DNA of 64,000 bases from contig DATKXS010000151.1 of assembly GCA_035528895.1 (NCBI GenBank), positions 3,812 to 67,811 on the forward strand. Reading direction: 5' to 3'. A model generated the notes under the pieces. The model saw only the letters and a list, made by a program, of their open reading frames with translations. It was not told the DNA's origin and did no database searches. Each line of letters starts with the position of its first letter. Position 1 is the stretch's first letter. A program made the translations under genes and the position numbers. Shown here piece after piece: positions 2,141 to 58,981 of the stretch. The stretch comes from Candidatus Desulfaltia sp. Lineage in GTDB: Bacteria; Acidobacteriota; Aminicenantia; Aminicenantales; UBA8522.

Positions 2141-2338
2141 ATGGACAGAAGAGAGAAAGCAATCAAGGAACTTATGAGGTTCAAGAAGCGGGCGGGCTGG
2201 AGCCAGGATAGGCTGGCCAAGGAGCTGGGCGTTCACAATCAGACCGTGGGTGGCTGGCTCCGGGGGCTTTATAAGCCCAGCCTGCTGGCGCTCCCGCTGA
2301 TCGAGGCCTTTCTGAAGAAGGCAAGGAGGACGAAATGA
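2141..2338 (+). CDS. Small XRE-family helix-turn-helix transcriptional regulator (phage cI/Cro-like)
   Basis: 65 aa; ...AGWSQDRLAKELGVHNQTVGGWLRG... is a classic HTH_XRE signature. Its stop overlaps the start of the integrase gene. Confidence 0.55.
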   Translation: MDRREKAIKELMRFKKRAGWSQDRLAKELGVHNQTVGGWLRGLYKPSLLALPLIEAFLKKARRTK

Positions 2339-3519
2339 GGAAAACACATCCGAACCTGGTCTTTGTCCCGGCGACGAAGGACAAGAGGGGAAGGGAGAAG
2401 CCCGCCCACTACATGACCGAGCTGACGATTAATTACAAGCGGGTGAGACGGAACGCTGGGGCCACCAAGGAGGAGGCGCTGATCTACCTGGGCGAGTTGC
2501 GCAAGGCGGCCAAGGAGGGGAGGCTCGACGATCTCATCCGTCCACCGAAGGCGCTTCCGGGGTCGACGTTTGGGGAGTATGCCCAGGGCCTCCTCGATTC
2601 CGCTGAATGGAAGCAGAAGCGGAGCCGGAGGCGCGATGGTACTTCACTCGATGCCCTCAACAAGGTCTTCAAGAACGTACCGCTGGCCGAGATAACGGCG
2701 GGCGGCGTGCGCACGTACATGATCCGCAGGGTGAACAGTGACGGCCTGCGGCCCGCCACGGCGAATCGGGAGCTTAGCTTCCTGAAGTCGGTCCTCTATG
2801 CGGCCGAGTTCGACGGTATCATCCAGGCGAATCCGATTCGAGGCCGAAGGGTGAAAAGGCTGCAGGAGTGCAACGAGCGGGAGGAACATATACTCGGGCT
2901 GGGCATCACGGACGATAAGCTCCGTCGGCTCGTAGACGCGGGCGGCGAGTGGTTCGGCGTCGTCCTTCGGCTGGCGGTGACGCTGGGCATGCGCCAGGGC
3001 GAGATACTGAAAGCCGAGTGGAGGGACTTCAATCTGGCCCTCCGGACCCTGCGAGTACGGAAAGAGAACGCCAAGAGCAAGGAGGAGCGGACAATCCCGC
3101 TTGGCCCGGAGCTGGCCGTGGCGATTGACACACTCCCGAGAATAGGGCAATATATCTTTTCCCTGCCCGACGGAGAGCGGAGACGGGACGTGCGTAAGCC
3201 CTGGCTGGCCGCATGCAAGGCGGCCGATATCCCGACGAGCCGGGCGAACGGAATCACGTTCCATGATCTCAGGCACTTCGCGGCCTCTCATCTTGTGAAG
3301 GTGACGGACGTGGTGACAGCTCAAAAAATTCTCGGCTGGAAAACACTCGACATGGTGAGGCGGTATGTTCACCCGACGGACGAGGACAAACGGTTGGCAG
3401 TGGAGGCTGTCGAGGCCGGGCTTTTCCGGGTACAAGGACGTCAAAATCCCGTCAATGATAAAAATGACGGGGCAGAAGAGAGGCCGGCTGAATCAACGCA
3501 AATTAAACGCGTTCAATAA
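2335..3519 (+). CDS. Tyrosine-type site-specific recombinase / phage integrase
   Basis: 394 aa. C-terminal catalytic region carries R...HDLRH...RRY (Arg, His-x-x-Arg, Tyr nucleophile in VRRYVH). The N-terminal SAM-like domain is typical of phage integrases. Confidence 0.8.
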   Translation: MRKTHPNLVFVPATKDKRGREKPAHYMTELTINYKRVRRNAGATKEEALIYLGELRKAAKEGRLDDLIRPPKALPGSTFGEYAQGLLDSAEWKQKRSRRRDGTSLDALNKVFKNVPLAEITAGGVRTYMIRRVNSDGLRPATANRELSFLKSVLYAAEFDGIIQANPIRGRRVKRLQECNEREEHILGLGITDDKLRRLVDAGGEWFGVVLRLAVTLGMRQGEILKAEWRDFNLALRTLRVRKENAKSKEERTIPLGPELAVAIDTLPRIGQYIFSLPDGERRRDVRKPWLAACKAADIPTSRANGITFHDLRHFAASHLVKVTDVVTAQKILGWKTLDMVRRYVHPTDEDKRLAVEAVEAGLFRVQGRQNPVNDKNDGAEERPAESTQIKRVQ

Positions 3520-3533
3520 TATTTGGCATATAT

Positions 3534-3606
3534 GGCCCGTTAGCTCAATAGGTAGAGCAGCGGACTCTTAATCCGCAGGTTGGAGGTTCGAGCCCTCCAC
3601 GGGTCA
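3534..3606 (+). tRNA. tRNA-Lys (anticodon CTT)
   Basis: 73-nt cloverleaf read directly. Acceptor stem ggcccgt/acgggtc with one G-U pair; D-arm agctcaataggtagagc; anticodon stem gcgga/tccgc with loop ctCTTaa; T-arm ggttcgagccctcc. No encoded CCA. Confidence 0.85.
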
Positions 3607-3620
3607 TTCGGATCCCTCCG

Positions 3621-3998: not shown

Positions 3999-4670
3999 TC
4001 AGCGGAAGCGGGTGAAAAACGGAGAATCCCGGCCGTCGTCAGAGTCGAGTCCCAGGCACTTGGCATAGCATCTGAGGACCTCAAGGTTCTTTTCTCCGTT
4101 GGAATGGTGATCGGGGGTCTCCTCTTCCAATGATTCCAGCCGGGACGGATCGACCCCGCACTGCTTGGCGATGTCCTCCAGGGACAGCCCCTTTCTCTCC
4201 CTGACCCTTTTGAGGTAGTCGCCGCAATAGGATAAATCGTCGGACAGACGCCGCCAGTGCCTTGCATCCCCATTCTCACCGGGAGTGCGGTTCTTCCGGC
4301 GGCGGCGGACTGGAGCGACGACGGACTTGATCTTGTCCCAGAGGCTGTCTTCCTCCGAGGCATCCTCGATCAGCAGGCGCTCTGTCGACCTGCGGAAGGA
4401 AGCCTTCTGCCGGAACTCCGGATGCCGGTCGCAGACGAGCAAGTCGTAGGCTTTTCTTTTCTCCGGGTCGTGCAGGGTCTGGAACGCGGCCTCGGCCTTG
4501 TTCAGGATGATGGCCCTCTCTTCGTCCAGGAGCACTCCGTAGGACGCCAGACTGTCCTGGTGGTAGGTGGCGATGGCCAGAAGGTAGGAGTTATCGATCT
4601 CTTTCGGGGAGGCGTCGCAGCGCAGGTTCAGGATCTCGTAGTAGTCCAGGTCCTCGATCTTCTTGATCAT
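3999..4670 (-). CDS. J-domain (DnaJ-like) protein with a C-terminal XRE-type HTH domain
   Basis: N-terminal DYYEILNL...AYHQDSL J-domain-like region. C-terminal YLKRVRERKGLSLEDIAKQCGVDPSRLESLE matches HTH_XRE. Translationally coupled to the upstream ParA-like gene (4 nt apart). Confidence 0.55.
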   Translation of the reverse strand: MIKKIEDLDYYEILNLRCDASPKEIDNSYLLAIATYHQDSLASYGVLLDEERAIILNKAEAAFQTLHDPEKRKAYDLLVCDRHPEFRQKASFRRSTERLLIEDASEEDSLWDKIKSVVAPVRRRRKNRTPGENGDARHWRRLSDDLSYCGDYLKRVRERKGLSLEDIAKQCGVDPSRLESLEEETPDHHSNGEKNLEVLRCYAKCLGLDSDDGRDSPFFTRFR

Positions 4671-4673
4671 CGT

Positions 4674-5624
4674 TCAAGCCCGGAGCGAAGACCTCTCTTC
4701 TTCCTTGACGGCCGGCTCGTCCTGGGAGAGGCGCTCCGCCATCGACCGGATCGTCCGGGAAACGGAGCTCTCGGGATATTCGAAGATGAACGGGGAGAAC
4801 TTCTTCAGGCTCCAATGGACCCGCTCGTCGTAGGGGATCGTGCCGAGGAGCTCCAGGTTGATGAGGAAATATTTGCGGACGACGTCGACGATCGAACGGC
4901 CGAGAAGAACGTCCTTTTTGTCCCGGGCCTTGTTGACCACGAGGTAGAGCCGGAGGCTTTTCAGGGCGGCGGTGAGGACCTGGCTGGCCGATCCGTCGCT
5001 GGCCGCCAGGTTCTCCAGAAACGTCCTCAAGGTGGTGGAACGGGATTCGAACTCTTCCTGAACTCTCTTGTCGAAGTCTCGGATCTCGAAATAGCGGGCG
5101 TAAGCCTTGAGGATCCTGAGGGCGCACGACCTCAGGAACAGATAGGTGTTTTCGATCGCCGTCGGCTCGGGTGTGACCACGAGGATTCCGGAACTGGCGA
5201 TGACGAACAGATCGAGGGTGTTGTAGGCGCTTCCCGTCCCCAGGTCGATGATCACTCTTTTCGACGGAAGGCTCTTGATCTGCCGGATAAGCTTCAGCTT
5301 CTTGTAGTGGTTGAGGTTGGCCAGGAAAAGCGTGTTCTCGCTTCCCCGGATAAGCCGCAGTCCGGGGAAGGAGGTGGATATGATGATATCCTCGAGGCGG
5401 TCCACCTGGTTCCTGATGAAATCGCCCAGGTCCCGTCCGCTTTCCCGGACGCCGAGAAGGGTATGCAGGTTGGGGCCTCCCAGGTCGGCGTCGATGGCGA
5501 TGACATCTCCTCGGTCAACGCCGAGGGCGATGGCCAGATTGGCCGAGAGGAAGGTTTTCCCCGTTCCTCCCTTGCCGCCGCCGACCGCCCAGATGACCAG
5601 GGGACGCTTTTTATCTTCGGACAT
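4674..5624 (-). CDS. ParA/MinD-family P-loop ATPase (deviant Walker A)
   Basis: 316 aa. VGGGKGGTGKTFLSANLAIAL is the deviant Walker A KGGxGK[ST] of the ParA/MinD/FlhG family. Other family features present are DADLGGPNL and a hydrophobic beta-strand core. Confidence 0.75.
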   Translation of the reverse strand: MSEDKKRPLVIWAVGGGKGGTGKTFLSANLAIALGVDRGDVIAIDADLGGPNLHTLLGVRESGRDLGDFIRNQVDRLEDIIISTSFPGLRLIRGSENTLFLANLNHYKKLKLIRQIKSLPSKRVIIDLGTGSAYNTLDLFVIASSGILVVTPEPTAIENTYLFLRSCALRILKAYARYFEIRDFDKRVQEEFESRSTTLRTFLENLAASDGSASQVLTAALKSLRLYLVVNKARDKKDVLLGRSIVDVVRKYFLINLELLGTIPYDERVHWSLKKFSPFIFEYPESSVSRTIRSMAERLSQDEPAVKEEERSSLRA

Positions 5625-5778
5625 TGGGATCGACCGTTCTTCGTGTGAATATGAGTTTCTATTCTAACACAGCGTCCCGGGGAAGTGAATATGTTCGAGC
5701 GAAAAATTGAATTCTGCCGCCGTTTCTGCTATCCTACACCCCATCATTCAAGGATCAAAAGAGGAGGAACGAACTTCG

Positions 5779-7725: not shown

Positions 7726-8213
7726 CGGTAGTTGGCGAATTCCATATGGATACCGAAATCCTGCCCTCTGAGGAAGGCGATCACTTCCTGAAGAGTGTCG
7801 ATCTTCGGCGAAGAGATGCGGACCTGGTCTCCCTGGATGGCCGCCTGGGCTCTGAATTTTTGCTGTTTGATCAGCTTGACGATCTCGCGGGCCTTCTCGA
7901 TGGGGATGCCCGCCTGGAAGTGGACCTCTTGCTTGACCGTCCGGTTGGGCCCGGCCTCGACCTTCTGGTACAGGACGGCCTTGAGGGGGATGCGGCGTTT
8001 GACCATTTTTTGCTCCAGGACCTCGATAAGGCTGCGGAGCTTGATGCCGTCCTCGGCGATCAGGATCAGCCGGTCCTTTTCCTGGACGATCTCGGCCCGG
8101 CTGTGCTTGAAATCGAAGCGGTTGGTGATCTCCTTGAGGGTGATGTGGATGGCGTTCGAAACCTCCTGCCGGTCGATCTTGGAGACGATGTCGAACGAAT
8201 GGTCAGGCATCAT
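7722..8213 (-). CDS. YajQ-family nucleotide-binding protein (UPF0234)
   Basis: 163 aa with N-terminus MPDHSFDIVSKIDRQEV, characteristic of YajQ (MPSFDIVSE.D..E). Confidence 0.75.
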   Translation of the reverse strand: MMPDHSFDIVSKIDRQEVSNAIHITLKEITNRFDFKHSRAEIVQEKDRLILIAEDGIKLRSLIEVLEQKMVKRRIPLKAVLYQKVEAGPNRTVKQEVHFQAGIPIEKAREIVKLIKQQKFRAQAAIQGDQVRISSPKIDTLQEVIAFLRGQDFGIHMEFANYR

Positions 8214-8292
8214 GGGGCTTTATCTTAGCATTGAAGGGCCATTTTTTCAAACCGCCTTTTCTCTTCTTCCTGCCGCTTTTTCAACAGCCCCT

Positions 8293-9558
8293 CTAAAGAT
8301 CCGTTTTGTATCTGAGGCGGAAGTGGGAGGGGGTGATCTTTTCGAGCTTCTTGAAATTCTTGGTGAAGTGGCTCTGGTCGCAATACCCGAGCTCGGCGGC
8401 CAGCTCGGCCAGCGAGATATCGCTGTTCAGGAGAAGGTATTTCGCGTAATCGAGTTTCAGCTTGTTGATATAGCCCGTCAAAGCCATCCCCGTCTCTTGC
8501 CGAAACAAGTGAAGCGCCCGGCTGACGCTGAGCCCGGCTTCCCCGGCGACATCCCGGGCGGTGATCTTGCCGGTGAAGTTCTGCTCGATGAAATCGCGCA
8601 TCCGCTGGCACCGGACCTTCCTCTTTTTCCCTTTGCTCAACGAAACCTTGGCGATGAAATTCTCCAGGACCCGGGTGACCTTGAAGAGCAACTCCTCCAG
8701 GTCCGTCACCTTGCTGAGCTCGGTGAGATAGGAATAGTTGAGCCCGAGGAGCTCCTGGGCTCCGACCCCGGCCTCGATGGCCGCCCGGGAGATGATGACG
8801 ATGAGCTCGATGATCCGGACCTTGATCACCTCGAAGTTCATCCCGCTCTCGAAGAAGATCGAGCCCAGGAATTCGTTCAGGATCTCCCGAGCCCCGGCCC
8901 TGTCCCCCAGCTTCACCTTCTGGATGATCTCGTCCTGTTTGTCCAGGATCTTCCGGGCAATGTCGGGGTTTTCCCTCTTCAGTTTTTCCAGGAAGTTGGC
9001 GATCTTGTATTGCTGAATGTATTTTTCGTTCCGCTCCCTCAGAAAAGCGAGGTCGTTGATCTGGTGTTTTTGGGTCAGGGACATGAGCTGGGAGACGGCC
9101 TCTTTCGCCCTCCTGAGAGAGATATCCCTGACGCCCTGAGCCCTGAGGCCGAGCGGCTTTGCCGCCGCGCCGAATCTGGCCAGGTTGGCGGAGACTTCTT
9201 CGGCAAAATCCTCCTTCATTTCGGCAAAGATGGCGAATCCGCTGATCAACCCGCCCTTGAGCTTCTTGTGCTGGACGATGGGTACCGCGAAGAGAACAAA
9301 TCCCAGCGGGCAGGTTGTGATGTAGCCCTCCCCCCAGCGGAATGATTCCTCGACAGCCTGAGCCATCTTCTGGCGGCAGTTCTTGCCCAGCTTCTCCTCT
9401 CCGCCGGCAACGGCTTTCCGGCAAAAGTCGCAGCCTCCGGAACTGTGGATGATCTTGCCCCCGAGGTCGACCAGGACCAAGTGAAGGCCCGTCTTTTGCC
9501 GGTACTCCGCGGCGAGGGATTTGAACCGGACCGCGGCTATGGTTTTCCCCGTCTCCAT
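8293..9558 (-). CDS. AraC-family transcriptional regulator with N-terminal PocR-type sensory domain
   Basis: The C-terminal 100 aa are a canonical AraC HTH pair (...ARDVAGEAGLSVSRALHLFRQETGMALTGYINKLKLDYAKYLL...DISLAELAAELGYCDQSHFTKNFKKL). The N-terminus (HSSGGCDFCR...ITTCPLGF) matches the PocR ligand-binding domain. The likely start is METGKT (ATG complement at 9556-9558); the track ORF extends to 9591. Confidence 0.75.
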   Translation of the reverse strand: METGKTIAAVRFKSLAAEYRQKTGLHLVLVDLGGKIIHSSGGCDFCRKAVAGGEEKLGKNCRQKMAQAVEESFRWGEGYITTCPLGFVLFAVPIVQHKKLKGGLISGFAIFAEMKEDFAEEVSANLARFGAAAKPLGLRAQGVRDISLRRAKEAVSQLMSLTQKHQINDLAFLRERNEKYIQQYKIANFLEKLKRENPDIARKILDKQDEIIQKVKLGDRAGAREILNEFLGSIFFESGMNFEVIKVRIIELIVIISRAAIEAGVGAQELLGLNYSYLTELSKVTDLEELLFKVTRVLENFIAKVSLSKGKKRKVRCQRMRDFIEQNFTGKITARDVAGEAGLSVSRALHLFRQETGMALTGYINKLKLDYAKYLLLNSDISLAELAAELGYCDQSHFTKNFKKLEKITPSHFRLRYKTDL

Positions 9559-9620
9559 TCTGGTATAATCCCGGAGAGCATTATCTAGCAAAATTATACA
9601 AGAGAAGACCGGAAAAGGCC

Positions 9621-10259
9621 ATGCGGACCCTGACCGAGATCGCGGCGAGTGTCGAGGCCGGGGATTCGGCCAGGGTCAAGGAGCTGACCCGGAAGGCCCT
9701 TTCTCAGGGACACCGCCCGGAAAAAATCCTGGACGACGGCCTAATCCAGGGGATGTCGGCAATCGGGGAGAAGTTCAAGAGCAACGAGGTCTTCATTCCG
9801 GAGGTCCTGATCGCCTCCCGGGCCATGAATGTTGGGCTGGAGATCCTTCGCCCGCTCTTTTCCCCCGAGCGGGAGCATTTCAGGAGGAAAATTGTCCTGG
9901 CCACGGTCAAAGGGGACCTCCACGATATCGGCAAAAAAATCGTCGGGATGATGCTCGAAGGAGCCGGGTATAAGGTCGTGGACCTGGGAATCGATGTCCC
10001 CAAGCGAACGATCGTCCGGGCCGTCAAGATTAATCGGCCGTCCGTCCTCGGGCTGTCCGCCCTTCTCACGACGACCATGTCCTATATGAGGGATGTTGTC
10101 GAGGCCATAGAACACGCTGGGCTCAGACGCCGGGTCCGGATCGTCATCGGAGGTGCTCCCGTAACGCGCTCCTACGCCGACGAGATCGGGGCCGACGGCT
10201 ATGCGCCCGATGCGGCCTCTGCTCTAGAGGTGGTCAAGAGACTGTCGGCCAAGAAATAA
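9621..10259 (+). CDS. Cobalamin-binding corrinoid protein (MtaC/MtbC/MttC-like)
   Basis: 212 aa. Cap helical domain followed by a Rossmann B12-binding domain carrying the DxHxxG motif (GDLHDIGK), SALLTTT and GGAP. Confidence 0.8.
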   Translation: MRTLTEIAASVEAGDSARVKELTRKALSQGHRPEKILDDGLIQGMSAIGEKFKSNEVFIPEVLIASRAMNVGLEILRPLFSPEREHFRRKIVLATVKGDLHDIGKKIVGMMLEGAGYKVVDLGIDVPKRTIVRAVKINRPSVLGLSALLTTTMSYMRDVVEAIEHAGLRRRVRIVIGGAPVTRSYADEIGADGYAPDAASALEVVKRLSAKK

Positions 10260-10269
10260 GGGAGGGAAG

Positions 10270-11055
10270 ATGAAGATTGCGGTGTCCGGGAAAGGAGGAG
10301 TCGGCAAGTCGACGATCGCCGGGATCTTGGCTCATTATTTTGTCCGGAACGGCTACAAGGTCCTGGCCGTCGATGCCGATCCCGACGCCAACTTGGCAGC
10401 CGCTCTCGGGATCCCGAAGTCAGAGACGCAAAGGATCTTGACCATATCTCAGCAGAGGGATCTCATCAAGGAGAGAACGGGCGCTTCTCCCCGGCAATTC
10501 GGCCAACTGTTTAAGATCAACCCCCGGGTCGATGATATCCCCGAGGACTACTCGTTCCCATTTAGGGGCATCCGGCTCTTGGTCATGGGGGCCGTTCGCA
10601 AGGGAGGGGAAGGATGTGCCTGCCCCGAGAATGTCCTGCTCAAGAGTCTGCTCTCTGAGATCATCCTGCGCCGGGATGAAGCCGTCATCGTCGACATGGA
10701 GGCTGGAATTGAACATCTGGGCCGGGCCACGGCGTCGGCCATCCAGGAAATGATCATTGTCGTTGAGCCCGGCTCCCGGAGCGTCGACACGGCTCTGACC
10801 ATCATGAGGCTGTCTCGGGACATCGGCCTTCAGGAGTTCCGGATTATCGGCAATAAAGTCCAGGACGATGACCAGGAGCGCTGGATTCGCTCTCATTTTC
10901 CGCCCGCCCTTATCTTAGGCATGATCCCCTACAGCGAGTCCATCCGGGACGCTGACCGGAGTGAACAGCCGCTCATCGACATTCTGGATGACCGGCTCCG
11001 GACGGAATTCAGGTCGATCTTCTCGGCCCTGATCAGCGGTCGACATCCGGCCTGA
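10270..11055 (+). CDS. cooC: CooC/AcsF-type Ni-insertion accessory ATPase for CODH/ACS
   Basis: Deviant Walker A SGKGGVGKST and the conserved Cys-x-Cys metal-binding motif (GEGCACPEN) typical of CooC. Confidence 0.75.
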   Translation: MKIAVSGKGGVGKSTIAGILAHYFVRNGYKVLAVDADPDANLAAALGIPKSETQRILTISQQRDLIKERTGASPRQFGQLFKINPRVDDIPEDYSFPFRGIRLLVMGAVRKGGEGCACPENVLLKSLLSEIILRRDEAVIVDMEAGIEHLGRATASAIQEMIIVVEPGSRSVDTALTIMRLSRDIGLQEFRIIGNKVQDDDQERWIRSHFPPALILGMIPYSESIRDADRSEQPLIDILDDRLRTEFRSIFSALISGRHPA

Positions 11056-11176
11056 AATTGGCCGGTATTTTTCCGGTAAAAATAGCATGATTATACGAAT
11101 TCTTACCCCCTCATTCCTATATTCCCAGTCGCAAAAAGGATATCCTGGATCCGGGAGATAAAGAGCGAGGTCTATC

Positions 11177-12217
11177 ATGAGCTTCAACCCTCAAGGTTTG
11201 GCCACGGCTATCGGCAGTCTGCCCCATCAGAGCCCCGAGGCGGCCTGCCGGGCCGTCTTGGACAGCATCCCGGAAATCCCGATCTGGCCCCAGCTTCCAG
11301 CTTTGGATTTCCGGGAAAGCATGGAGATTCAATACTCGGAGGGTCTTCCCGGTGTGGTCCTCGATCCCGTCGGCCGGAGGATGCATTTCGATACCGGCGG
11401 GGACATTACCCTGGGGCTGGAGAAGTTCTACGAGAACTATATGGCCGAGAACCTCGAGTACTTCCGGATCTCTCCGGGTTTCAGCCGGGGTATCTACGAG
11501 ATGGAGAGAATGTTGGCCGCGCAGAAACCGGCCGGTCTCCGCTATTTCAAGAACCAGGTGACCGGCCCCATTACCGTCGGCCTCGGCCGCACGGACGAAA
11601 AGAAGCGCTCCATCTATTACAACGAGATGATGAGGGATGTCATAGTCAAGGGCGCCGAGATGAAAGCCCGCTGGATGTTGACCCGGTTCCGGGCGCTCGG
11701 GGTGCCGCAGCTCTGCTTTATCGACGAGCCGATCCTGTCGGCCTTCGGTTCCTCGACCTATGTCAGTGTCCAGCGCTCCGACCTCGTTCAATACCTGCGG
11801 GACGTCATCGCGGCCGTCCACAAAGAGGGCGGCTTGGCCGGAATCCACTGCTGCGGGAATACCGAATGGACGATTCTCGTCGATGCCGGCACGGACGTCA
11901 TCAGCTTTGATGCCTTCGACTATGGGGAGACCATCGCTTACTACCCCGGTCCGATGAAAGACTATCTGGAGAGGGGAGGGGTGCTGGCCTGGGGCATCGT
12001 TCCGACTTCGGCCAAGATCGCCGCGGAAACCCCGGAAACCCTGCTCGGGCGGCTTCGTTCGGCCGTCGAAAACCTGGCCGGCAAGGGGATCCCGAAGAGC
12101 CTGATCTGGGAAAAGTGCCTGGTCACGCCGAGCTGTGGGACCGGTACGCTTCCCGTAGATTTGTCGGAGAAGGTTTTTGCCCAGTTGGGCGAGGTGAGCC
12201 GCCGGTTGCGGGCTTAA
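11177..12217 (+). CDS. URO-D-family zinc methyltransferase (MtaA/MtbA/MtsA-like methylcobamide:thiol methyltransferase)
   Basis: 346 aa. GIHCCGNT near residue 215 and VTPSCGTG near residue 318 mirror the MtaA zinc-ligand pattern (LHICGN ... PGCGI). Size and (beta/alpha)8 organisation are consistent. Confidence 0.55.
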   Translation: MSFNPQGLATAIGSLPHQSPEAACRAVLDSIPEIPIWPQLPALDFRESMEIQYSEGLPGVVLDPVGRRMHFDTGGDITLGLEKFYENYMAENLEYFRISPGFSRGIYEMERMLAAQKPAGLRYFKNQVTGPITVGLGRTDEKKRSIYYNEMMRDVIVKGAEMKARWMLTRFRALGVPQLCFIDEPILSAFGSSTYVSVQRSDLVQYLRDVIAAVHKEGGLAGIHCCGNTEWTILVDAGTDVISFDAFDYGETIAYYPGPMKDYLERGGVLAWGIVPTSAKIAAETPETLLGRLRSAVENLAGKGIPKSLIWEKCLVTPSCGTGTLPVDLSEKVFAQLGEVSRRLRA

Positions 12218-12261
12218 ACACCTGAGCCGGAAAACGGGAGAAATCGTTCGGACAGGAGACA

Positions 12262-14196
12262 ATGTCGAAACCGAAAAGCATAGACAAAACGGTCAACGAG
12301 ATGCTCGAGCAGGCCAAGGCCAAAGGCCTGGAGACGATCTGGGACAGGGCGGACGAGCAGACGCCCCACTGCGGGTTCGGGGAGCAGGGGGTTTGCTGCC
12401 ATGTCTGCTATATGGGGCCCTGCCGGATCAACCCGGCTGGAAAAAAGCCGCAAAAGGGCGTCTGCGGCGCCACTGCCGAAATGATCATCGCCCGGAATTT
12501 CTGCCGGAGGATCGCTGCCGGGACGGCCGCTCATTCCGAACACGGACGGGAGGTGGCCAAGACCCTGCTTTTGGCGGCCACGAACCCCGATTCGGGATAT
12601 GCCATCCGGGATGTCCGGAAGCTCAAAAAGGTCGCTCAGACTTTCGGCGTCTCCATCCAGGACAAACCCAACGACCGGATCGCCCTCGAGGTGGCCGAAC
12701 AGGCTTTGGCCGATTTCGGCCGGCAGGAGGGCGAGATCTCCTTTATCAAAGTGGCCCCCGAGAAGCGGCAGGCTCTCTGGCGTAAGCTGGGCGTCGTGCC
12801 GCGGGGTATCGACCGCGAGGTGGTCGAGATGTTGCATCGGACCACCATGGGAGTGGACCAGGATCACCGCAACATCATGCTCCAGGGTGCCCGGACAGCT
12901 TTGGCCGACGGTTGGGGCGGGTCGATGGTTGCAACTGAGCTCCAGGACATCTTGTTCGGGACGCCGTCCCCGATCCGCGGGCAGGTCAACCTCGGCGTCC
13001 TCTCCAAAACCGATGTCAACATCGTCGTCCACGGACACGAGCCGGTCCTCTCGGAGATGCTCGTCGCGGCTTCCAGGGATAAAGAACTCCAAGCGCTCGC
13101 CAGGTCGGCGGGAGCGACCGGGATCAACCTTGCGGGCATCTGCTGCACGGCTAACGAGATCCTTATCCGCCACGGGCTGCCGATCGCCGGGAACATCCTG
13201 CAGCAGGAGCTGGCCGTGGCCACAGGGGCAGTGGACGCGATGATCGTCGACGTCCAGTGCATTATGCCCTCGCTGCCCCAGATCTGCAAGAACTTCCACA
13301 CGCTGCTCATCACCACTTCGCCCAAGGCCAAGATCGACGGGGCCCGGTCTGTGGATATTCAGGCGGAGAACGCCTATCAGGGGGCCAGGACGATCATCCG
13401 GGAGGCCATCACCAACTACGCTAACCGCGGTGCGGTCGACATCCCCCGGGACAAGATGGACCTCGTCGCCGGTTTTAGTCATGAGGCTATCACTTACATG
13501 CTGGGCGGCTCTTTCCGCGGTTCCTATGTACCCCTTAACGATAACATCATCAACGGCCGGATCAAGGGAGTCGCCGGAGTCGTCGGCTGCTCCAACCCGA
13601 AGACAACCCACGACAAGGGGCACGTCGGCCTGGTCGAAGAGCTCATCGCCAACGATATCCTCGTCGTTCAGACCGGCTGTTCCGCCATCGCCTGCGCTAA
13701 GGCCGGGTTGCTGACTCCGGAATCGGCCATCAAGTACGCGGGTAAAGGCTTGGCCGAGGTCTGCCAAGCTGTCGGCATGCCCCCGGTTCTCCACTCCGGG
13801 TCGTGCGTCGACAACAGCCGCATCCTGATCGCTTTGACCGAGATGGTCAGAGTCGGGGGTTTGGGTCAGGACATCAGCGACCTGCCGGTGGCCGGTGCGG
13901 CTCCGGAGTGGATGAGCGAGAAGGCTATCGCCATCGGGCAGTACTTCGTCGCCTCCGGCGTGTTCACTGTCTTCGGCATCGGGCTCCCGATCACGGGAAG
14001 CGAGCTTTTTTGCCGCCACATCTTTGACGAGTACAAGGACCTTTTCGGCGGCCATTGGGCGGCTCAGCCCGATGGAACCAAGATAGCCGGTATGATCATC
14101 GACCATATCCACGCCAAACGGGAGAAGCTGGGCATCAGCAAGGGCAAGGAAAGGGTGTTGTTCGATATGGAGATGCGGCGTCAACTGGACGTGTGA
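12262..14196 (+). CDS. cooS: Anaerobic carbon monoxide dehydrogenase catalytic subunit (CooS / AcsA, Ni-Fe-S)
   Basis: 644 aa. The N-terminal Cys cluster HCGFGEQGVCCHVCYMGPC...KGVCGA (D- and B-cluster ligands) plus C-cluster region motifs support a CooS-family CODH. Confidence 0.9.
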   Translation: MSKPKSIDKTVNEMLEQAKAKGLETIWDRADEQTPHCGFGEQGVCCHVCYMGPCRINPAGKKPQKGVCGATAEMIIARNFCRRIAAGTAAHSEHGREVAKTLLLAATNPDSGYAIRDVRKLKKVAQTFGVSIQDKPNDRIALEVAEQALADFGRQEGEISFIKVAPEKRQALWRKLGVVPRGIDREVVEMLHRTTMGVDQDHRNIMLQGARTALADGWGGSMVATELQDILFGTPSPIRGQVNLGVLSKTDVNIVVHGHEPVLSEMLVAASRDKELQALARSAGATGINLAGICCTANEILIRHGLPIAGNILQQELAVATGAVDAMIVDVQCIMPSLPQICKNFHTLLITTSPKAKIDGARSVDIQAENAYQGARTIIREAITNYANRGAVDIPRDKMDLVAGFSHEAITYMLGGSFRGSYVPLNDNIINGRIKGVAGVVGCSNPKTTHDKGHVGLVEELIANDILVVQTGCSAIACAKAGLLTPESAIKYAGKGLAEVCQAVGMPPVLHSGSCVDNSRILIALTEMVRVGGLGQDISDLPVAGAAPEWMSEKAIAIGQYFVASGVFTVFGIGLPITGSELFCRHIFDEYKDLFGGHWAAQPDGTKIAGMIIDHIHAKREKLGISKGKERVLFDMEMRRQLDV

Positions 14197-14197
14197 T

Positions 14198-16403
14198 CAT
14201 GTCGAGGATCATAGCCACGCGAGCCATCCGGGGCGCCCACAAGCTGGTGGCCCGGGCCGAACGGGAGCTCCTCCGGGCCATCGAAGAAAAGGGAGCGGAC
14301 GCCCGGGTAGAATTCCCCAACACGGGCTACTATCTTCCCATCTCGCACGGGATTCTCGGGCTGAAGATCGAGACTCTGGGCGGCCTGCGGGAGCTGCTGG
14401 CCGAAGCCCAAGAGCTGCTGCCTCCGGTCCCCTCGGACAATCTCTGGCTCCCCTATCTGGGGAATACGCTCGACGCCGGGATGGCGACACTGTTCGCCGA
14501 TGAGATCATCGAGGCCATCAAGTACACCCAGGACCCTCTCCCATATCTTACCGGGTCCAACCCGAGAGACGGCCGTCTCTGGCTCGGGGCGGCCAACGAT
14601 GTCATTATGCGCGAGCGGGGCATCGAGTTCGTCGACAACACCGCCCCCGGGTTTGCCGCCTGTGTCGGCTGCTGTCCGACGAACGAGATCGCGGTCAGGA
14701 TCGCCAGGGAACTCCAGGAAAAGAACCTCTATGTCTTCATGTCCGCGGCGACGGACGGAAAATCCATGGCGCGGCAACTGGCCGAAGAGGGGATCGAGAT
14801 GGGTTGGGAGACAAGGCTCGTCCCCTTCGGTGATGATGTCACGGCCACCGTTCACGCCCTGGGGTTCTCGACGAGGGTGGCTCTTTCCTTCGGGGGCGCC
14901 CAGCCGGGGGATTACCAGCGTGTCCTTCGCTACAACAAGAACAGGGTTTTCGCCTTCGTATTGGCCCTGGGCCCGGTCGATGACGAAAAGCATGCTCAGG
15001 CGGCCGGGGCCATCAACTACGGGTTCCCGACGATCGCCGACACGGATATCGACAGCATCCTGCCGACGGGCATCTGCACCTACGAGCACGTCGTTTCGCC
15101 CGTTCCCCTGGAAAGGATCGTTTCCAAGGCGATCGAGGTCCGGGGACTCAAGATCACCGTCACCAAGGTTCCGATTCCCGTGCCGTTCGGCCCCGCCTTC
15201 CAGGGAGAGCGGGTCCGGAAAGAGGACATGTATGTGGAGCTGGCCGGGACAGACAAACCGGGCTTCGAATATTTGACCGGCCGGAGCCTGGAGGAGGTCG
15301 AGGACGGGAAGATCGAAGTCATCGGGCCGGAGATCGAGGACATGGAAGAGGGCAGCCAGCTTCCGCTAACCCTCTGGGTGGAAGTCGCGGGCCGCCAGAT
15401 GCAGCCCGATTTCGAGCCGATCCTGGAGCGGCGCCTGCATGATTTCATGAACATGGCCCATGGCGTTTTTCATATGGGGCAGCGGGACATCAACTGGGTC
15501 CGGATCAGCAACGAGGCCAAGGGAGCCGGGTTCCGGTTCCGTCACTTCGGCTCGATCATCCACGCCAAGCTGCACGGCGAGTTCGGCAAGATCGTCGACA
15601 AGGTCCAGGTGCGGATATACACCCGGGAGAAGGAGATCCGGGAGCTCATCGAGACCGCCCGGACAGTCTACCGCCGGCGTGATGAACGGCTGGCCGATCT
15701 GACCGACGAGGCCGTCGAGACCTTCTATTCGTGCACCCTCTGCCAATCCTTTGCCCCGAATCATGTTTGCGTCATCACCCCGGAACGCTCCGGCCTCTGC
15801 GGCGCCTATAACTGGCTCGACGGCAAGGCCGCCCACCAGATCAATCCCACCGGCGCCAACCAGCCCATCTTGAAGGCCCAGGTCATCGACCCGGTCAAGG
15901 GGCAATGGCAGGGGATCAATGAATTCGTCCTCAACGCCTCGCACAAGACGCTCCAGGTCTTCAGCGCTTACAGTATTATCGACAACCCCATGACCTCCTG
16001 CGGCTGCTTCGAATGCATCTCCTGCGTCCTCCCTTCCTGCAACGGGATCATGACGGTCTACCGGAATTTTCCCGGGATGACGCCGAGCGGGATGAAGTTC
16101 TCGACCCTGGCGGGGACGGTCGGGGGAGGCATCCAGACGCCCGGGTTCATCGGCCACAGCAAGCACTATATCAGCAGCCGGAAATTCATCAGCGCGGAGG
16201 GCGGAGCCAGGCGAATCGTCTGGATGAACCGCGAGCTCAAGGAAGAACTGGACTCACAGTTGCGCGAGATCGGCCGGCGCGAAGGGATCGAGAACTTCCC
16301 GGAGATGATCGCCGACGAGACCGTGGCCGTGACCGAGGAAGAAGTGCTTCCCTATATCACCAGGATGAACCATCCGGCGCTGGCCATGCCGCCTTTGTTT
16401 TGA
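14198..16403 (+). CDS. acsB: Acetyl-CoA synthase (AcsB; CODH/ACS alpha subunit, A-cluster)
   Basis: 735 aa from the ATG 1 nt after the cooS stop. A-cluster ligands are present: SCTLCQSF...HVCVITPERSGLCGA and the Cys-Gly-Cys motif (MTSCGCFECISC). The track ORF (14055-) is over-extended upstream. Confidence 0.9.
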
Positions 16404-16418
16404 GAGGGAGACCCGGAC

Positions 16419-17171
16419 ATGAAGACGATCGCCATCGCCGGCAAGGGAGGGACGGGGAAATCGACCCTCGCCGCCCTGGCCGTCCGCCGGCTGAAAGAGA
16501 GGAAAGGCGGGTCAATCCTGGCCGTCGACGCCGACTCCAACGTCAATCTCAACGACCTGCTCGGCGTCCCGCTCAAGGAGACGGTCGGGGCCATCCGGGA
16601 AGAGATGAGAACCCGGATCTCCGAACTTCCCGGAGGGATGACCAAGCAGCAATTCCTTGAATACAAGATCCAGACGAGCCTGGTCGAGGGACCGGATTTC
16701 GACCTCATCGCCATGGGCCGGCCTGAGGGTCCGGGATGCTACTGCTACGCCAACAACCTGCTCCAGGATATCCTTCGAACGCTCTCCGCCAACTATGACT
16801 ACGTGGTGATCGACAACGAAGCCGGGATGGAGCACCTGAGCCGCCGGACCAGCCAGGCCATCGATTGTCTCCTGATCGTCTCCGACGCCACGGCCCGGGG
16901 GATCGCCACGGCCGGGAAAATCAGCCGGCTTCTGACTGAGCTCGAAACCCGCGTCGGCCGGAAATATCTCGTCCTCAACCGCGTCGCCGGGCCTCTGTCG
17001 GACCCCGTCGAAGCCGCCATCCGCGAAGAGAAGTTCACGCTCCTCGAGACGATCCCGGAGGACGATGCGCTCTTGAAGATGGACCGGCAGGGAATCCCCG
17101 TCTATTCGGTTTCCGCCGGCTCCCCGGCCTACCGGTCCGTCAGCCGGATGATGGACAGACTGGACCTCTAA
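16419..17171 (+). CDS. cooC: CooC-type Ni-insertion accessory ATPase (second copy)
   Basis: AGKGGTGKST Walker A and a Cys-x-Cys motif (GPGCYCYANN). It sits between acsB and acsD, as in acetogen acs operons. Confidence 0.8.
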   Translation: MKTIAIAGKGGTGKSTLAALAVRRLKERKGGSILAVDADSNVNLNDLLGVPLKETVGAIREEMRTRISELPGGMTKQQFLEYKIQTSLVEGPDFDLIAMGRPEGPGCYCYANNLLQDILRTLSANYDYVVIDNEAGMEHLSRRTSQAIDCLLIVSDATARGIATAGKISRLLTELETRVGRKYLVLNRVAGPLSDPVEAAIREEKFTLLETIPEDDALLKMDRQGIPVYSVSAGSPAYRSVSRMMDRLDL

Positions 17172-17183
17172 GGGAATCGAAGC

Positions 17184-18182
17184 ATGACCATCGATATTCC
17201 AAGAGAAGCCAACCCGGGCAAGATCATCGAGGTGACGATCGGGGCGACGGCTGACCAGGGCGGGACGCGCTCTCACACCGTGACCCTCGGCGGGAGCACG
17301 GCCCTGCCGTTTCATTTTTTCGAGGGGGACCACCCCCATCGGCCCGTCGTGGCCATGGAAGTCTTCGATTCGGTCCCCGCCAAGTACCCGGATTCCCTGC
17401 GGGATTACACCCATGACGTCCTGGCGAAGCCCGCTGAGATGGCCCGGCGGTGCGTCGCGGAATGGGGGGCGGAGATGATCAGCGTCCGGCTGGAAGGGAC
17501 TCATCCCGAGAAAAGCAATAAAAGCGCCGAAGAGGCCGTCGAGTTGGTCAAGGAAGTCCTGGCCTCGGTCCAGGTCCCGTTGATCATCACCGGACACAGC
17601 CATTTCGAGAAGACGAACGAGGTCATGAAAAAGGTCTGCGAGGCCACGGCAGGAGAGAACTGCCTGATCAACTATGTCGAGACGAACAACTACAAGACGA
17701 TCGCCGCCGCCTGTTTGGCCTATCATCATAGCCTCGTGGCCCAGTCTCCGATCGATGTCAACCTGGCCAAACAGCTGAATATCCTCCTCACCGACATGAA
17801 CTTTCCTCCGGCCAGGCTGGTGCTGGACCCGCTGACCGGAGCCCTCGGCTACGGTCTGGAATATACCTATTCCATCATGGAGAGAATCCGGAATGACGGC
17901 CTGGCCGGCGACCCGATGCTGGCCTTCCCGATGCTCACGACACCGGGCTTCGAATGCGCCAAGGTCAAAGAGGCCCGGGCTCCGGAGAAAGACTATCCTG
18001 GATGGGGTGATGAGAAACGCCGGGGCGCCTATTGGGAGATCGCCACAGCGATGAGCCTGCTCGTCGCCGGCGCGGACCTGTTGATCATGGCCCATCCCGA
18101 GGCCGCCGAGGTCGTCCGCAAGCAGATCGCCGAGATGTCCGATTCCGGAAAGGAGGGAGTCCGTGGCGCTCTCCGGACTTGA
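17184..18182 (+). CDS. acsD: Corrinoid iron-sulfur protein small subunit (AcsD / CdhD-like)
   Basis: 332 aa TIM-barrel-like subunit. Positioned immediately before, and overlapping by 20 nt, the [4Fe-4S]-containing large subunit. Confidence 0.75.
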   Translation: MTIDIPREANPGKIIEVTIGATADQGGTRSHTVTLGGSTALPFHFFEGDHPHRPVVAMEVFDSVPAKYPDSLRDYTHDVLAKPAEMARRCVAEWGAEMISVRLEGTHPEKSNKSAEEAVELVKEVLASVQVPLIITGHSHFEKTNEVMKKVCEATAGENCLINYVETNNYKTIAAACLAYHHSLVAQSPIDVNLAKQLNILLTDMNFPPARLVLDPLTGALGYGLEYTYSIMERIRNDGLAGDPMLAFPMLTTPGFECAKVKEARAPEKDYPGWGDEKRRGAYWEIATAMSLLVAGADLLIMAHPEAAEVVRKQIAEMSDSGKEGVRGALRT

Positions 18183-19500
18183 CATCTTTAAGCTCTTGCC
18201 CAAGACGAACTGCGGCGATTGCGGCGTTCCCACCTGCATGGCCTTCGCCATGAAGATCGCCCAGAAGAAGGCCGAGCTTTCGAGCTGTCCCCATGCTTCC
18301 GAGGAAGCCAAGGCCGTCCTGGGCGCGGCCGGCGAACCTCCGATCCGACTGCTCAAGATCGGCCCTGAGAAGGCTCTGGAGGTGGGTGGGGAAACTGTCC
18401 TCTTCCGGCACGAAAAGACGTTCTTTCACCCGCCCGGGATAGGCCTGGAGCTGCGGACATCCTCAGCCGAGGACAGCATCCGCGCCGCTATTCAGCAGTG
18501 GGAGGATTTTCAGATCGAACGGGTGGGCGAGCTCCTCCAGGCCGACCTCTTTTTCATCTCCCATGATTCGCCGGGAAAATCCGCTTTCCTGAGGACGATC
18601 GCGCTCGTCAAAGCGAATTCGGAAAAAGGAGTAATTGTCGACTGTCCGGACGAGGGATCTTTGAAGGCGGGCCTCGAGCTTCTCCGGAATGACCGGCCGG
18701 CGATCTACCTGCGCCGGCCGGTGACGGACAAGGACATCGGGCTGGCGAAAGCCGCGGGAGCCAGCCTGATCATCTCGGGCTCCTCGCTGGAAGACCTGGC
18801 CGATCAGACGGAGAGGGCCCGGCAAGCCGGTCTGACTGACCTCATCCTGAACGGCCCGGCGGCGGGTTTGGGAGAGGCCATCCGGAACAACACGATCCTG
18901 AGACGGAGCGCCCTCAAGAGGAACTTCAAGCCTTTCGGCTATCCCATTTTGACCCGGATCCAGAGCGAAGACGGGTTCGAGTCGCTGGCCGGGGCGACCG
19001 TCCTCCTCTGCAAGTATGCCTCGATCATCGTCCTGCCCCGGTTTGATAAGGCTCTGCTCTACACCCTTTTTACCCTCCGGCAGAATATCTACACCGACCC
19101 CCAGAAGCCGATCCAGGTCGACCCCAAGGTCTACGCCATCGGCGAGCCCACTCCGGGATCTCCCGTCTTCGTGACGACGAATTTCTCTTTGACCTATTTC
19201 ATCGTCTCGGGGGAGATCGAAAACTCCGGGACGTCCGCTCATCTCGTCGTCTGCGACACCGAGGGGCAGTCCGTTCTCACGGCCTGGGCGGCGGGAAAGT
19301 TCGTCCCGGAAAAGATCGCCAAGTTCATCAAGGACATCAAGCTAGAAGAGATGGTCGAGACCCGAAAACTCGTCATCCCCGGCTTAGTGGCCCAGATCTC
19401 CGGCGAGCTGGAAGAAAAACTTCCCGGCTGGGAGATCATCGTCGGCTGCCAGGATGCGGCCGACATCCCCTCTTTTGTCAAGAGCGTGAATCTGGCCTGA
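18163..19500 (+). CDS. acsC: Corrinoid iron-sulfur protein large subunit (AcsC / CdhE-like)
   Basis: 445 aa with the N-terminal [4Fe-4S] motif KTNCGDCGVPTCMAFAMK characteristic of the CFeSP large subunit. Confidence 0.85.
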   Translation: MALSGLDIFKLLPKTNCGDCGVPTCMAFAMKIAQKKAELSSCPHASEEAKAVLGAAGEPPIRLLKIGPEKALEVGGETVLFRHEKTFFHPPGIGLELRTSSAEDSIRAAIQQWEDFQIERVGELLQADLFFISHDSPGKSAFLRTIALVKANSEKGVIVDCPDEGSLKAGLELLRNDRPAIYLRRPVTDKDIGLAKAAGASLIISGSSLEDLADQTERARQAGLTDLILNGPAAGLGEAIRNNTILRRSALKRNFKPFGYPILTRIQSEDGFESLAGATVLLCKYASIIVLPRFDKALLYTLFTLRQNIYTDPQKPIQVDPKVYAIGEPTPGSPVFVTTNFSLTYFIVSGEIENSGTSAHLVVCDTEGQSVLTAWAAGKFVPEKIAKFIKDIKLEEMVETRKLVIPGLVAQISGELEEKLPGWEIIVGCQDAADIPSFVKSVNLA

Positions 19501-19516
19501 TGAATACGATAGAGTC

Positions 19517-21421: not shown

Positions 21422-21463
21422 ACAAAGGCTCGAGGACGGAGATATTTGCAAGGAGGAAGAGCA

Positions 21464-22350
21464 TGTCCGCAGCGATCCTGGAATTGATCCGGAAACGCAG
21501 GGTGCTCCTCGACGGCGGCTTCGGGACCGAGCTCATCCGGCTCGGATTCCCTCAAGGGGCCTGTCCCGAAACCTGGAATGTGGAGAGGCCCGATGTCGTC
21601 AAGGAGATCCACGGGAGCTATTTTGAGGCCGGTTCGGATGCCGTCCTGACCAACAGCTTCGGGGGAAGCGCGATCAAACTGGCCTCTCACGGCCAGGACA
21701 AAAGGTGCTATGAATTGAACAAAGCAGCGGCGACCATCGCCAATGAGGTCAAGCCCGCGGGATGTTTCGTCGGCGGAAGCCTGGGGCCGACGGGGAAGTT
21801 CCTCCAACCGCAGGGCGAGTTCACGGAACGGCAGTTCGAGGATGCCTACGCCGAGCAGGCGAGGGGTCTGGCCGACGGCCTGGCCGATTTTCTGTTGATC
21901 GAGACACAGTACGATCTCAGAGAGGCGCACTGTGCCTTGCGGGCGGCCCGCCGGGTTACGGCCATCCCGGTCTTCGTGACCATGACCTACAACCGGGTTC
22001 CGAGGGGCTTTTTCACGATGATGGGGAACAGCGCCGCCCAGTGCCTCGAAGAGCTCGAAAGGGAAGGAGTCCCCGTCCTGGGAGCCAACTGCACCCTCGA
22101 CAGTGCGGACATGGCCGACCTGGTCAAGGCCATGAGAGAGAAAACCGGGCTTCCGCTGATCGCCCAGGCCAACGCCGGGAAACCCTCTCTTTCCGCGCAA
22201 GGGGAGGTCTCCTACTCGCAGGGATTGGAGGACTATCTTCAGCACATCCCCCGGACGATCGAGAACGGAGCGAACATCATCGGCGGCTGCTGCGGGACGA
22301 ACCCCGAGTATATTCGCCGGATGGCCGCCCTCGTTAAAGAGGAAAGTTGA
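21464..22350 (+). CDS. Homocysteine-binding-domain (MetH N-terminal-like, S-methyltransferase Pfam family) zinc methyltransferase
   Basis: ILELIRKRRVLLDGGFGTEL (MetH-like ILDGAMGT), a first Zn ligand in GANCTL and the terminal GGCCGTNPEYI (MetH GGCCGTTP Zn-ligand pair). Start chosen at the ATG 8 nt after AGGAGG (21464); the track start 21418 overlaps the RACo stop. Confidence 0.7.
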
Positions 22351-22439
22351 AAAGTCCTTCCGTTTGGATATGATAGTGAACTATGTCACGGAAACTGGAT
22401 TCTTTTGGAACCGATCGAACATCGGAGAAAGGAGAGACG

Positions 22440-23090: not shown

Positions 23091-23137
23091 AGCCGCGACC
23101 GACGTCCTAGCGTCAGAACGGAAAGGAAGGAAGACAG

Positions 23138-24604: not shown

Positions 24605-24670
24605 ACGAGCTTCTGAAGAGCGGATACGTCTTCGTTTTCTTGGCTGGATATCCCGGAAAGGAGCGCGACG

Positions 24671-26119: not shown

Positions 26120-26213
26120 AATAGCAGGGAATTTATTACTTTTCATTTCATGAATAATCCAGGATAAATCATCCTTTAAAAAATATGGGGGATGGACGGG
26201 CTTGTCCTCGGCT

Positions 26214-28842: not shown

Positions 28843-28940
28843 CGAAACCTCCTTCATTATATGTACAAAACTCGGCCGGAAAAATTCCTCGCAGAGAATC
28901 CTACCATAAAAAGACGGGTGAATCCAAGAAGGTTTTTTGT

Positions 28941-44848: not shown

Positions 44849-44861
44849 CGAGAGAGTCATC

Positions 44862-45695: not shown

Positions 45696-45723
45696 GCGGG
45701 ACCGAGCGCGCTGAGAGTGGGAG

Positions 45724-58486: not shown

Positions 58487-58498
58487 AAGAGGTGTGAT

Positions 58499-58969: not shown

Positions 58970-58981
58970 GGCTCGTGTCCC

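Follow-up and report, generated by a model that had tools for sequence, protein, structure and literature searches.

Which methyl-transfer reaction is served by a zinc-site methyltransferase whose gene lies inside a carbon monoxide dehydrogenase/acetyl-CoA synthase (CODH/ACS) operon? This question was raised by a stretch of contig DATKXS010000151.1 (64,000 nucleotides at its full length, hereafter the window), in which three co-oriented open reading frames (ORFs) encode a small corrinoid protein (Corr1), a CooC-type ATPase (CooC1) and a protein of 346 amino acids (X346). The trio has the coordinates and the order given in the initial annotation of this DNA (Table 1), and it stands directly upstream of cooS, with gaps of 10 bp between Corr1 and CooC1, 121 bp between CooC1 and X346, and 44 bp between X346 and cooS. 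The annotation had taken X346 for a URO-D-family (PF01208) enzyme of the MtaA/MtbA/MtsA type, which together with Corr1 would demethylate dimethylsulfide (DMS), methanethiol or methylmercaptopropionate (MMPA) to feed the acetyl-CoA pathway or, alternatively, would act as a thiol-methylating outlet. X346 belongs to the known MesB family of core methionine synthases, and the new part is its informative operon context. It is probably a MesB-type methionine synthase that transfers a methyl group from a methyl-corrinoid protein, the corrinoid iron-sulfur protein (CoFeSP) and/or Corr1, to homocysteine.

Identification of X346 as a MesB-family protein

Four "core" methionine synthase families have been defined, among which MesB is typified by the core-MetE of Dehalococcoides (PMC7857596). 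This enzyme has 343 amino acids and the Zn ligands H215/C217/D236/C312, and it forms methionine in vitro with methylcob(III)alamin, not 5-methyltetrahydrofolate, as the methyl donor (PMC7005905). To be counted as MesB, a protein must reach a phmmer score of 130 bits against the characterised enzyme, which corresponds to about 29% identity (PMC7857596). As the reference, the Dehalococcoides orthologue was found by scanning a metagenome collection with the gene-specific part of the primer A481_fw (cbdbA481). It lies on a 465-kb contig and encodes a 343-amino acid protein that begins with MTKTDF and ends with KHGTV, as both primers require, and it carries H215, C217, D236, C312, S15, W69 and H122 as published (PMC7005905, PMC7857596); in the 3' primer site, at least one base is not the same as in strain CBDB1. 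A second primer match, in locus L091, had arisen by chance in a gene for an unrelated membrane protein and was discarded.

X346 showed 34% identity to this orthologue over 327 amino acids by BLASTP (223 bits, E 6e-75) and scored 225.6 bits by phmmer (E 2e-68). All 388 collected sequences (387 relatives and X346) scored at least 102 bits against the Dehalococcoides MesB, which itself falls within the diversity of the family, with 30-49% identity to the representatives. CoFeSP, which the host of a MesB protein is expected to encode, is represented by AcsD and AcsC in the same operon. Judged from these comparisons, X346 is a MesB-family (Dehalococcoides-type core-MetE) protein. The two proteins (cbdbA481 or DET0516 in Dehalococcoides mccartyi) are single barrels of about 345 amino acids from hosts that encode AcsB, AcsC and AcsD. 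They have the identical Zn set with the spacing H-x-C-x18-D-x74/75-C, in which Asp replaces the Glu of MetE, and share the blocks IGS(L/M)PH, WPQLP, DEP, HCCGNT(E/D)W, WGIVPT and TP(S/A)CG.

The H-x-C...C pattern described for X346 is indeed present (H224, C226 and C320), but it is equally characteristic of MetE-type enzymes and therefore does not discriminate between the URO-D and MetE families. Membership in URO-D was not borne out, because X346 gave no Pfam or NCBIfam match at E ≤ 0.001, and no Pfam match at E ≤ 10. Among 67 diverse relatives, sub-threshold matches were obtained to the MetE catalytic domain PF01717 in 15 (best E 3e-4), to PF01208 in six (best E 4e-3), and to the MtbA model in a single distant relative (E 0.032); this profile check speaks against an MtaA/MtbA/MtsA identity. 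The null Pfam/NCBIfam scans had first suggested a new family. This idea was rejected, since the authentic Dehalococcoides MesB also gave no Pfam match at E ≤ 10, and the lack of a domain in X346 is thus a property of the family. A sub-threshold match to NF002119 "methionine synthase" is common to the MesB reference, X346 (E 0.011) and its relatives.

In an exhaustive search, the X346 family came to 2,119 clusters (50% identity). Homologues of X346 number more than 4,900 and are mostly from metagenome-assembled genomes (MAGs) of Candidatus Aminicenantes, some of them with the JGI label "methionine synthase II (cobalamin-independent)". An ORF on the opposite strand (11117-12262) was rejected in favour of the X346 gene call, since neither homologues nor domains were found for it and its translation is of low complexity and rich in Arg, Gly and Pro.

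Fold and catalytic residues of X346

The AlphaFold2 model of X346, built with 40 homologues, is a single barrel (pLDDT 83.9, pTM 0.87). In the Foldseek search of the PDB, MetE enzymes were the best matches (T. maritima, Candida, Neurospora and S. mutans, E 8e-8 for T. maritima to 2e-5), followed by human UroD (E 5e-5) and the MesD core synthase 3RPD (E 1e-4), while no MtaA structure was among the top 50. Sequence searches of the PDB with X346 alone and with two profiles gave chance matches only (a PPR repeat protein, XaxB and a sulfur oxygenase). The N-terminal half of E. coli MetE showed no similarity to X346, and neither Meth_synt_1 nor Meth_synt_2 (PF08267 and PF01717) was matched, so the protein is a single catalytic barrel of about 340 amino acids and not of the two-barrel MetE architecture. 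The alignment of the family profile to E. coli MetE's C-terminal half by hhalign (E 2.2e-4, probability 45%) paired D183, H224, C226, D245 and C320 with D599, H641, C643, E665 and C726. In MetE, D599 is a ligand of the homocysteine amino group, and the other four are the Zn ligands (PMC7857596).

Among 67 representatives with 30-50% identity, the positions conserved in at least 90% included S14, Q52, D183-E184-P185, H224, C226, D245 and C320. The putative Zn ligands H224/C226/D245/C320 align with H215/C217/D236/C312 of MesB and are present in 66-68 of the 68 sequences. The residues corresponding to the homocysteine-binding S433 and D599 of MetE are S14 (65/68) and D183 (64/68); the equivalence of S14 is based on the match of the motifs IGSLPH and IGSMPH. 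X346 thus has the fold of MetE (PF01717), MesA, MesC and MesD, with equivalent Zn- and homocysteine-binding positions, and like MesA and MesC it has Gln (Q52) at the position taken as equivalent to Glu484 of MetE. It differs from MetE in having no N-terminal folate-binding barrel, no match to PF01717, and Asp instead of Glu as the fourth ligand. The family, the conserved catalytic residues and the fold support the earlier view of X346 as a Zn-thiolate methyltransferase of the UROD/MetE-like fold superfamily, and the characterised relative does take its methyl group from methylcobalamin.

These residues also bear on the possibility that X346 is an MtsA/MtaA-like methylthiol:corrinoid methyltransferase, acting on DMS, methanethiol or MMPA and passing the thioether methyl via Corr1 to acetyl-CoA synthesis. 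X346 shares with MtaA/MtbA/MtsA the barrel superfamily, the Zn-thiolate chemistry, the HxCxnC motif, the methyl-corrinoid donor proposed here and a cognate small corrinoid gene nearby. Its gene is in a catabolic CODH/ACS operon and not in a methionine/S-adenosylmethionine (SAM) operon, and an extra entry of methyl groups would be useful, since no AcsE-type pterin methyltransferase was found in the window or within ±10 kb in 80 loci. However, X346 lacks the PF01208 match, its acceptor-binding residues are of the methionine-synthase type and are retained in 64-65 of 68 sequences, and MetE leads the structural matches. In addition, no genes related to coenzyme M are present, the organism is not a methanogen, and the family is clearly MesB, whose characterised member makes methionine (PMC7005905). 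Membership in MesB and conserved amino-acid-binding residues conflict with a thioether demethylase, and we consider demethylation of methylthiols to feed the acetyl-CoA pathway very unlikely.

Operon context in relatives

A scan with one genome per species yielded 532 loci with X346 relatives, from which the best 80 (52-91% identity) were kept; the neighbourhoods were probed with the window's own proteins and by unbiased ORF clustering. Since the loci were picked by similarity to X346, and several are on short contigs, the frequencies describe the X346 clade and not MesB overall. The cooS gene was found within 3 kb downstream of the MesB gene in 49 of 57 loci (22/25 at ≥64% identity and 27/32 at <64%), and cooC within 600 bp upstream in 49 of 61 (23/28 and 26/33, respectively). 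A small corrinoid protein was encoded within 4 kb upstream in 16 of 47 loci (12/22 and 4/25). The loci carry the labels Aminicenantes, Acidobacteriota, Armatimonadota, Latescibacterota, KSB1, Eisenbacteria, Calditrichaeota and Thermodesulfobacteriota, with one archaeon. The only recurrent neighbours in the ORF census were CODH/ACS genes, RACo, Corr1, PocR and PF02574, and the inserts between the MesB gene and cooS encode a CooF-type ferredoxin and an FNOR-type oxidoreductase. Synteny with acs genes, which the initial annotation had proposed to look for, is therefore found in the relatives, but the trio is not a conserved unit: CooC-MesB-CooS spans the phyla and the corrinoid protein does not accompany it in most loci.

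The position between a Ni-insertion ATPase and CooS, together with the conserved His/Cys/Asp/Cys metal site, would also fit a non-enzymatic Zn- or Ni-binding chaperone for the maturation of the CODH/ACS metal clusters. The complete substrate-binding set of methionine synthases is retained, which makes such a role unlikely. The same residues occur in family members from genomes or contexts without CODH, and the characterised member is an enzyme (PMC7005905). We regard this role as scarcely credible.

Loci in which X346 relatives are not beside cooS were uninformative: L029, L030, L048 and L071 have unrelated neighbours, and L007 is a fragmented duplicate. The latter (8365-12227, CP070825.1, an Aminicenantes chromosome) is a second copy of the cluster, with a C-terminal fragment of RACo, CooC, an intact MesB gene and a truncated CooS. 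Besides CP070825.1, the cluster occurs in the complete genomes OY969586.1, CP070750.1, OW818647.1 and OY781964.1.

Linkage of mesB in operons with Wood-Ljungdahl genes has been described as linkage with acsC/acsD in some methanogens (PMC7857596 section 8). In the literature searched, this was the only such linkage, and we found no description of mesB between cooC and cooS, of a dedicated corrinoid protein and a PocR regulator beside mesB, or of acs clusters or the methyl branch in Aminicenantes. The CODH/ACS operon is apparently an undescribed context for a known family. The arrangement differs from that of Dehalococcoides, which has no CooS, in that the X346 gene is inside the acs operon between cooC and cooS and not with SAM-cycle genes, CooS is present, and a dedicated small corrinoid protein and a PocR/AraC regulator are encoded upstream.

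Corr1 and its accessory genes

As annotated, X346 has its own corrinoid partner protein. Corr1 has both B12-binding domains with the DxHxxG/SxL/GG base-off His-on motif; a B12-binding_2 cap is joined to a Rossmann domain, with DLHDIG at residue 99, as in cognate small corrinoid proteins. The gene between them likewise encodes the CooC that had been predicted, with GKGGVGKS at residue 7 and a Ni-binding C-x-C (CAC, residue 116), and it neighbours cooS. The best NCBIfam model for Corr1 was MtgC_2 (244 bits, below the cutoff of 370); because Corr1 scored below the cutoff of all substrate-specific NCBIfam models, no substrate is assignable. It is 32% identical to Corr2, the second small corrinoid protein of the window.

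The PocR regulator and Corr1 co-occurred in 20 loci. Reciprocally, in three look-ups, the relatives of Corr1 at 59-63% identity were all found in the arrangement PocR, Corr1, (activase), CooC, MesB, CooS, with PocR divergent. Corr1 and the PocR/AraC regulator are a narrower addition to the operon, mainly in Aminicenantes-type genomes. The adjacency of Corr1 and MesB was kept without CooC or acs genes in L018, L027, L028, L030 and L038. Many relatives (L006, L013, L016, L017, L019, L021, L024, L082 and L093) encode between Corr1 and CooC a second RACo-type activase of 518-585 amino acids, about 30% identical to the RACo of the window. In the window it is missing, and CooC directly follows Corr1. 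Just past PocR, a DUF3786 protein, usually with a PF02574 gene, was observed in L082 (1324-2934), L094 (1327-2829) and L095 (3214-3849); tblastn detected no DUF3786 protein in the window.

Proposed reaction and methyl donor

The X346 barrel would correspond to the C-terminal catalytic half of MetE, without the folate-binding N-terminal half. In the reaction that we propose, Zn at the predicted H224/C226/D245/C320 site would bind and deprotonate the thiol of homocysteine, whose carboxyl and amino groups would be held by S14 and D183, and the thiolate would attack the methyl group of a methyl-Co(III) corrinoid protein to give methionine and Co(I). We infer both the donor in vivo and the direction of flux. 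The operon linkage across phyla points to CoFeSP, and methylated AcsC/AcsD of the same operon would most likely be the donor, as hypothesised for MesB (PMC7005905, PMC7857596). In the Aminicenantes-type clade, Corr1 may be an additional or alternative donor, kept active by a RACo-type activase and expressed under the PocR/AraC regulator. CooC, the Ni-maturation ATPase for CooS, would be outside the methyl-transfer chemistry and bracketed by Corr1 and MesB in gene order only. The thiol-methylating outlet of the initial annotation agrees best with this proposal, the thiol being homocysteine. X346 is MetE-like, a finding that the annotation had set against its own proposal; this stands to the letter, but the pairing with a B12-binding protein is still sensible, since core MetE is corrinoid-dependent in vitro (PMC7005905).

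Several points weigh against a methyl-corrinoid:homocysteine methyltransferase. To our knowledge, no member of the MesB family has been demonstrated to accept a methyl group from CoFeSP or any other corrinoid protein. His122 of MesB, the proposed lower Co ligand in Dehalococcoides, is Gln127 in X346 (11555-11557), and this position is Gln in 50 and His in 17 of 68 family sequences, which suggests a different corrinoid-binding mode in most members. The Km for free methylcobalamin is high in vitro (PMC7005905). A biosynthetic MesB looks redundant beside the PF02574 protein, a potential homocysteine methylase with its own corrinoid protein in the same cluster. Distant Omnitrophota relatives of MesB are in unrelated contexts, and mesB of Dehalococcoides lies with SAM-cycle genes, not with acs genes (PMC7005905); linkage to acs is thus confined to this clade, and the role there could be a modified one. 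Corr1 was present in only 4 of 25 distant acs-linked loci, so that it is not a universal donor.

Alternatively, Corr1 and not CoFeSP may be the physiological donor, methylated by the MttB enzymes in a quaternary-amine:homocysteine system like MtgB/MtgC/MtgE. The confinement of the Corr1 clade to the X346 cluster, the Corr1-MesB adjacency without CooC or acs genes, the second activase beside Corr1 in many relatives and the similarity of Corr1 to glycine-betaine corrinoid proteins, its best in NCBIfam, all agree with this, and modular MtgBCE systems provide a precedent (PMC12478193). In the Mtg system of Ruegeria pomeroyi, one small corrinoid protein serves both the methyl-donor and the homocysteine-methylating modules (MtgB/MtgC/MtgD/MtgE), and the PF02574-corrinoid-MttB block of the window has the same module types. 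Unlike in the window, however, the homocysteine module of R. pomeroyi is the PF02574 protein MtgE and not MesB, the pterin module MtgD is essential, and the organism is aerobic and has no CODH/ACS (PMC12478193). Corr1 is missing in the remaining 21 of the 25 distant acs-linked loci, the MttB genes already have Corr2 and PF02574 as partners, and no methyltransferase 1 (MT1) gene adjoins Corr1. We consider Corr1 as the actual donor in place of CoFeSP to be a possibility, but not the likely case.

Methyl branch and the downstream block

The genes for AcsE, MetF, Fhs and FolD were not found in the 64-kb window, and tblastn with the E. coli MetH pterin domain detected no pterin-binding domain in the window or in about 90 loci, of which L001-L080 were covered to ±10 kb around the MesB gene; as this probe is distant, the absence of AcsE is weak negative evidence. 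The methyl branch is encoded elsewhere or absent. In these uncultured lineages, the acs-embedded MesB might accordingly replace the folate-dependent AcsE as the sole gateway between CoFeSP and the cellular C1 and methyl metabolism. CODH/ACS would then largely supply methionine methyl groups by cleavage of acetyl-CoA, with methionine as the sole methyl sink. Or homocysteine and methionine would form a folate-independent shuttle, in which methyl groups pass from MttB to Corr2, through the PF02574 enzyme to methionine, and by MesB working in reverse to CoFeSP or Corr1 and acetyl-CoA. A cluster in which Zn-thiol methyltransferases, corrinoid proteins and MttB genes are each present twice would suit such a role, and for Dehalococcoides, which has neither AcsE nor MetF, a methionine sink has been proposed (PMC7857596 section 8). 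On the other hand, the absence of AcsE is local and the Wood-Ljungdahl pathway is complete in many organisms with MesB (PMC7857596). The replacement of AcsE is improbable in our estimation, and the shuttle faces a further obstacle. The demethylation of methionine onto Co(I), as in the MetH reaction, is thermodynamically unfavourable.

The modules at 21418-26119 (PF02574, Corr2 and two MttB) match the MtgE/MtgC/MtgB set without the pterin-binding module, and the block could methylate homocysteine from quaternary amines. The PF02574 protein showed 28% identity to the homocysteine domain of E. coli MetH (tblastn, E 7e-26). A sub-threshold match to Rfam PYLIS_3 was observed at 24095-24194 (+) in the first MttB gene near codon 319 (28.9 bits, gathering score 38). 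This ORF has no in-frame UAG, and the match probably reflects homology of the coding sequence.

Features of the window

The coordinates in Table 1 are from the ORF listing and from Pfam/NCBIfam profile scans of the window. The two CooC-type ATPases are 33% identical. The hairpin at the stop codon of CooC1 hints that the MesB gene may head the acs transcript, but such sites are no commoner in the region than in shuffled sequences (2 observed, 2.8 expected), and the hairpin alone is not significant. A search of 8000-27000 revealed no riboswitch of the SAM, B12 or any other class, and no sigma-70-like promoter was detected in 9300-12400.

Table 1. Features of the CODH/ACS cluster and their supporting evidence
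Feature	Position	Strand	Evidence
PocR-sensor/AraC-HTH regulator, divergent from Corr1	8293-9591	-	Pfam PocR 1e-17, HTH_18 2e-20
Corr1, small corrinoid protein (212 aa), candidate dedicated methyl carrier	9621-10259	+	B12-binding_2 E 6e-21, B12-binding E 2e-28
CooC1, CooC-type Ni-insertion P-loop ATPase	10270-11055	+	CbiA/AAA_31 (CbiA/MinD-type) domains
Terminator-like GC hairpin and T-run, overlapping the CooC1 stop codon	11047-11065	+	weak evidence
X346, MesB-family core methionine synthase (346 aa)	11177-12217	+	MesB similarity, residues, fold
CooS/AcsA, Ni-CODH catalytic subunit	12262-14196	+	TIGR01702 667 bits, above cutoff
AcsB, acetyl-CoA synthase (start approximate, ORF opens at 14055)	~14226-16403	+	NF040764 1035 bits, aligned from ORF residue 58
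Second CooC/AcsF-like maturation ATPase	16419-17171	+	GKGGTGKS, CYC
AcsD, CoFeSP small subunit	17184-18182	+	NF003376 403 bits
AcsC, CoFeSP large corrinoid-binding subunit, proposed MesB methyl donor	18163-19500	+	NF003195 493 bits
RACo/AcsV, reductive activase of corrinoid proteins	19517-21421	+	Pfam RACo_C_ter, Raco_middle, RACo_linker, Fer2
PF02574 homocysteine-S-methyltransferase-domain protein (MetH N-terminal/MtgE-like)	21418-22350	+	S-methyl_trans 3e-66
Corr2, second small corrinoid protein	22383-23090	+	TIGR02370 231.5 bits, cutoff of 215 exceeded
Two non-pyrrolysine MttB-family methyltransferases	23138-24604, 24671-26119	+	PF06253 2e-85, 1e-86; ORFs uninterrupted

Outside the cluster, a phage-type integrase gene (2335-3519) adjoins tRNA-Lys(CTT) (3533-3607), a typical integration site, and 2335-3607 may mark the border of a mobile element on the upstream side of the cluster. 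The region 40786-47226 encodes a NuoF-like flavoprotein, a molybdopterin formate-dehydrogenase-like protein with NuoG-type Fe-S domains and an NfnAB/GltD-like pair, and may be a formate dehydrogenase/electron-bifurcation module for the same pathway. Long ORFs without a Pfam match are at 4257-5648 (463 amino acids), 28794-29969 (391 amino acids) and 57605-59710 (701 amino acids); the first two, which overlap annotated genes on the opposite strand, are possibly spurious. An NCBI protein with 100% identity to Corr1 comes from a MAG labelled "Candidatus Desulfaltia sp." (Desulfobacterales), and the close relatives of the neighbouring genes are all from Aminicenantes MAGs; several GTDB records are labelled "uncultured Eubacteriales". 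Such a mixture means either contradictory taxonomic labels or faulty binning.

Implications for core methionine synthases

The idea that CoFeSP is the methyl donor of MesB has so far rested on co-occurrence and on the operons of a few methanogens (PMC7857596). In dozens of species-level genomes, which represent at least eight phyla, mesB lies within the CODH/ACS operon; as comparative evidence this is much tighter, and the place of X346 in the operon beside Corr1 backs the idea of a corrinoid methyl donor. The annotation is also corrected for a family of more than 2,000 clusters at 50% identity, which has no Pfam model and whose members are mostly labelled "hypothetical". MesB, Corr1, AcsCD and RACo form a set of proteins with which the question of the donor of the core methionine synthases becomes directly testable in vitro.

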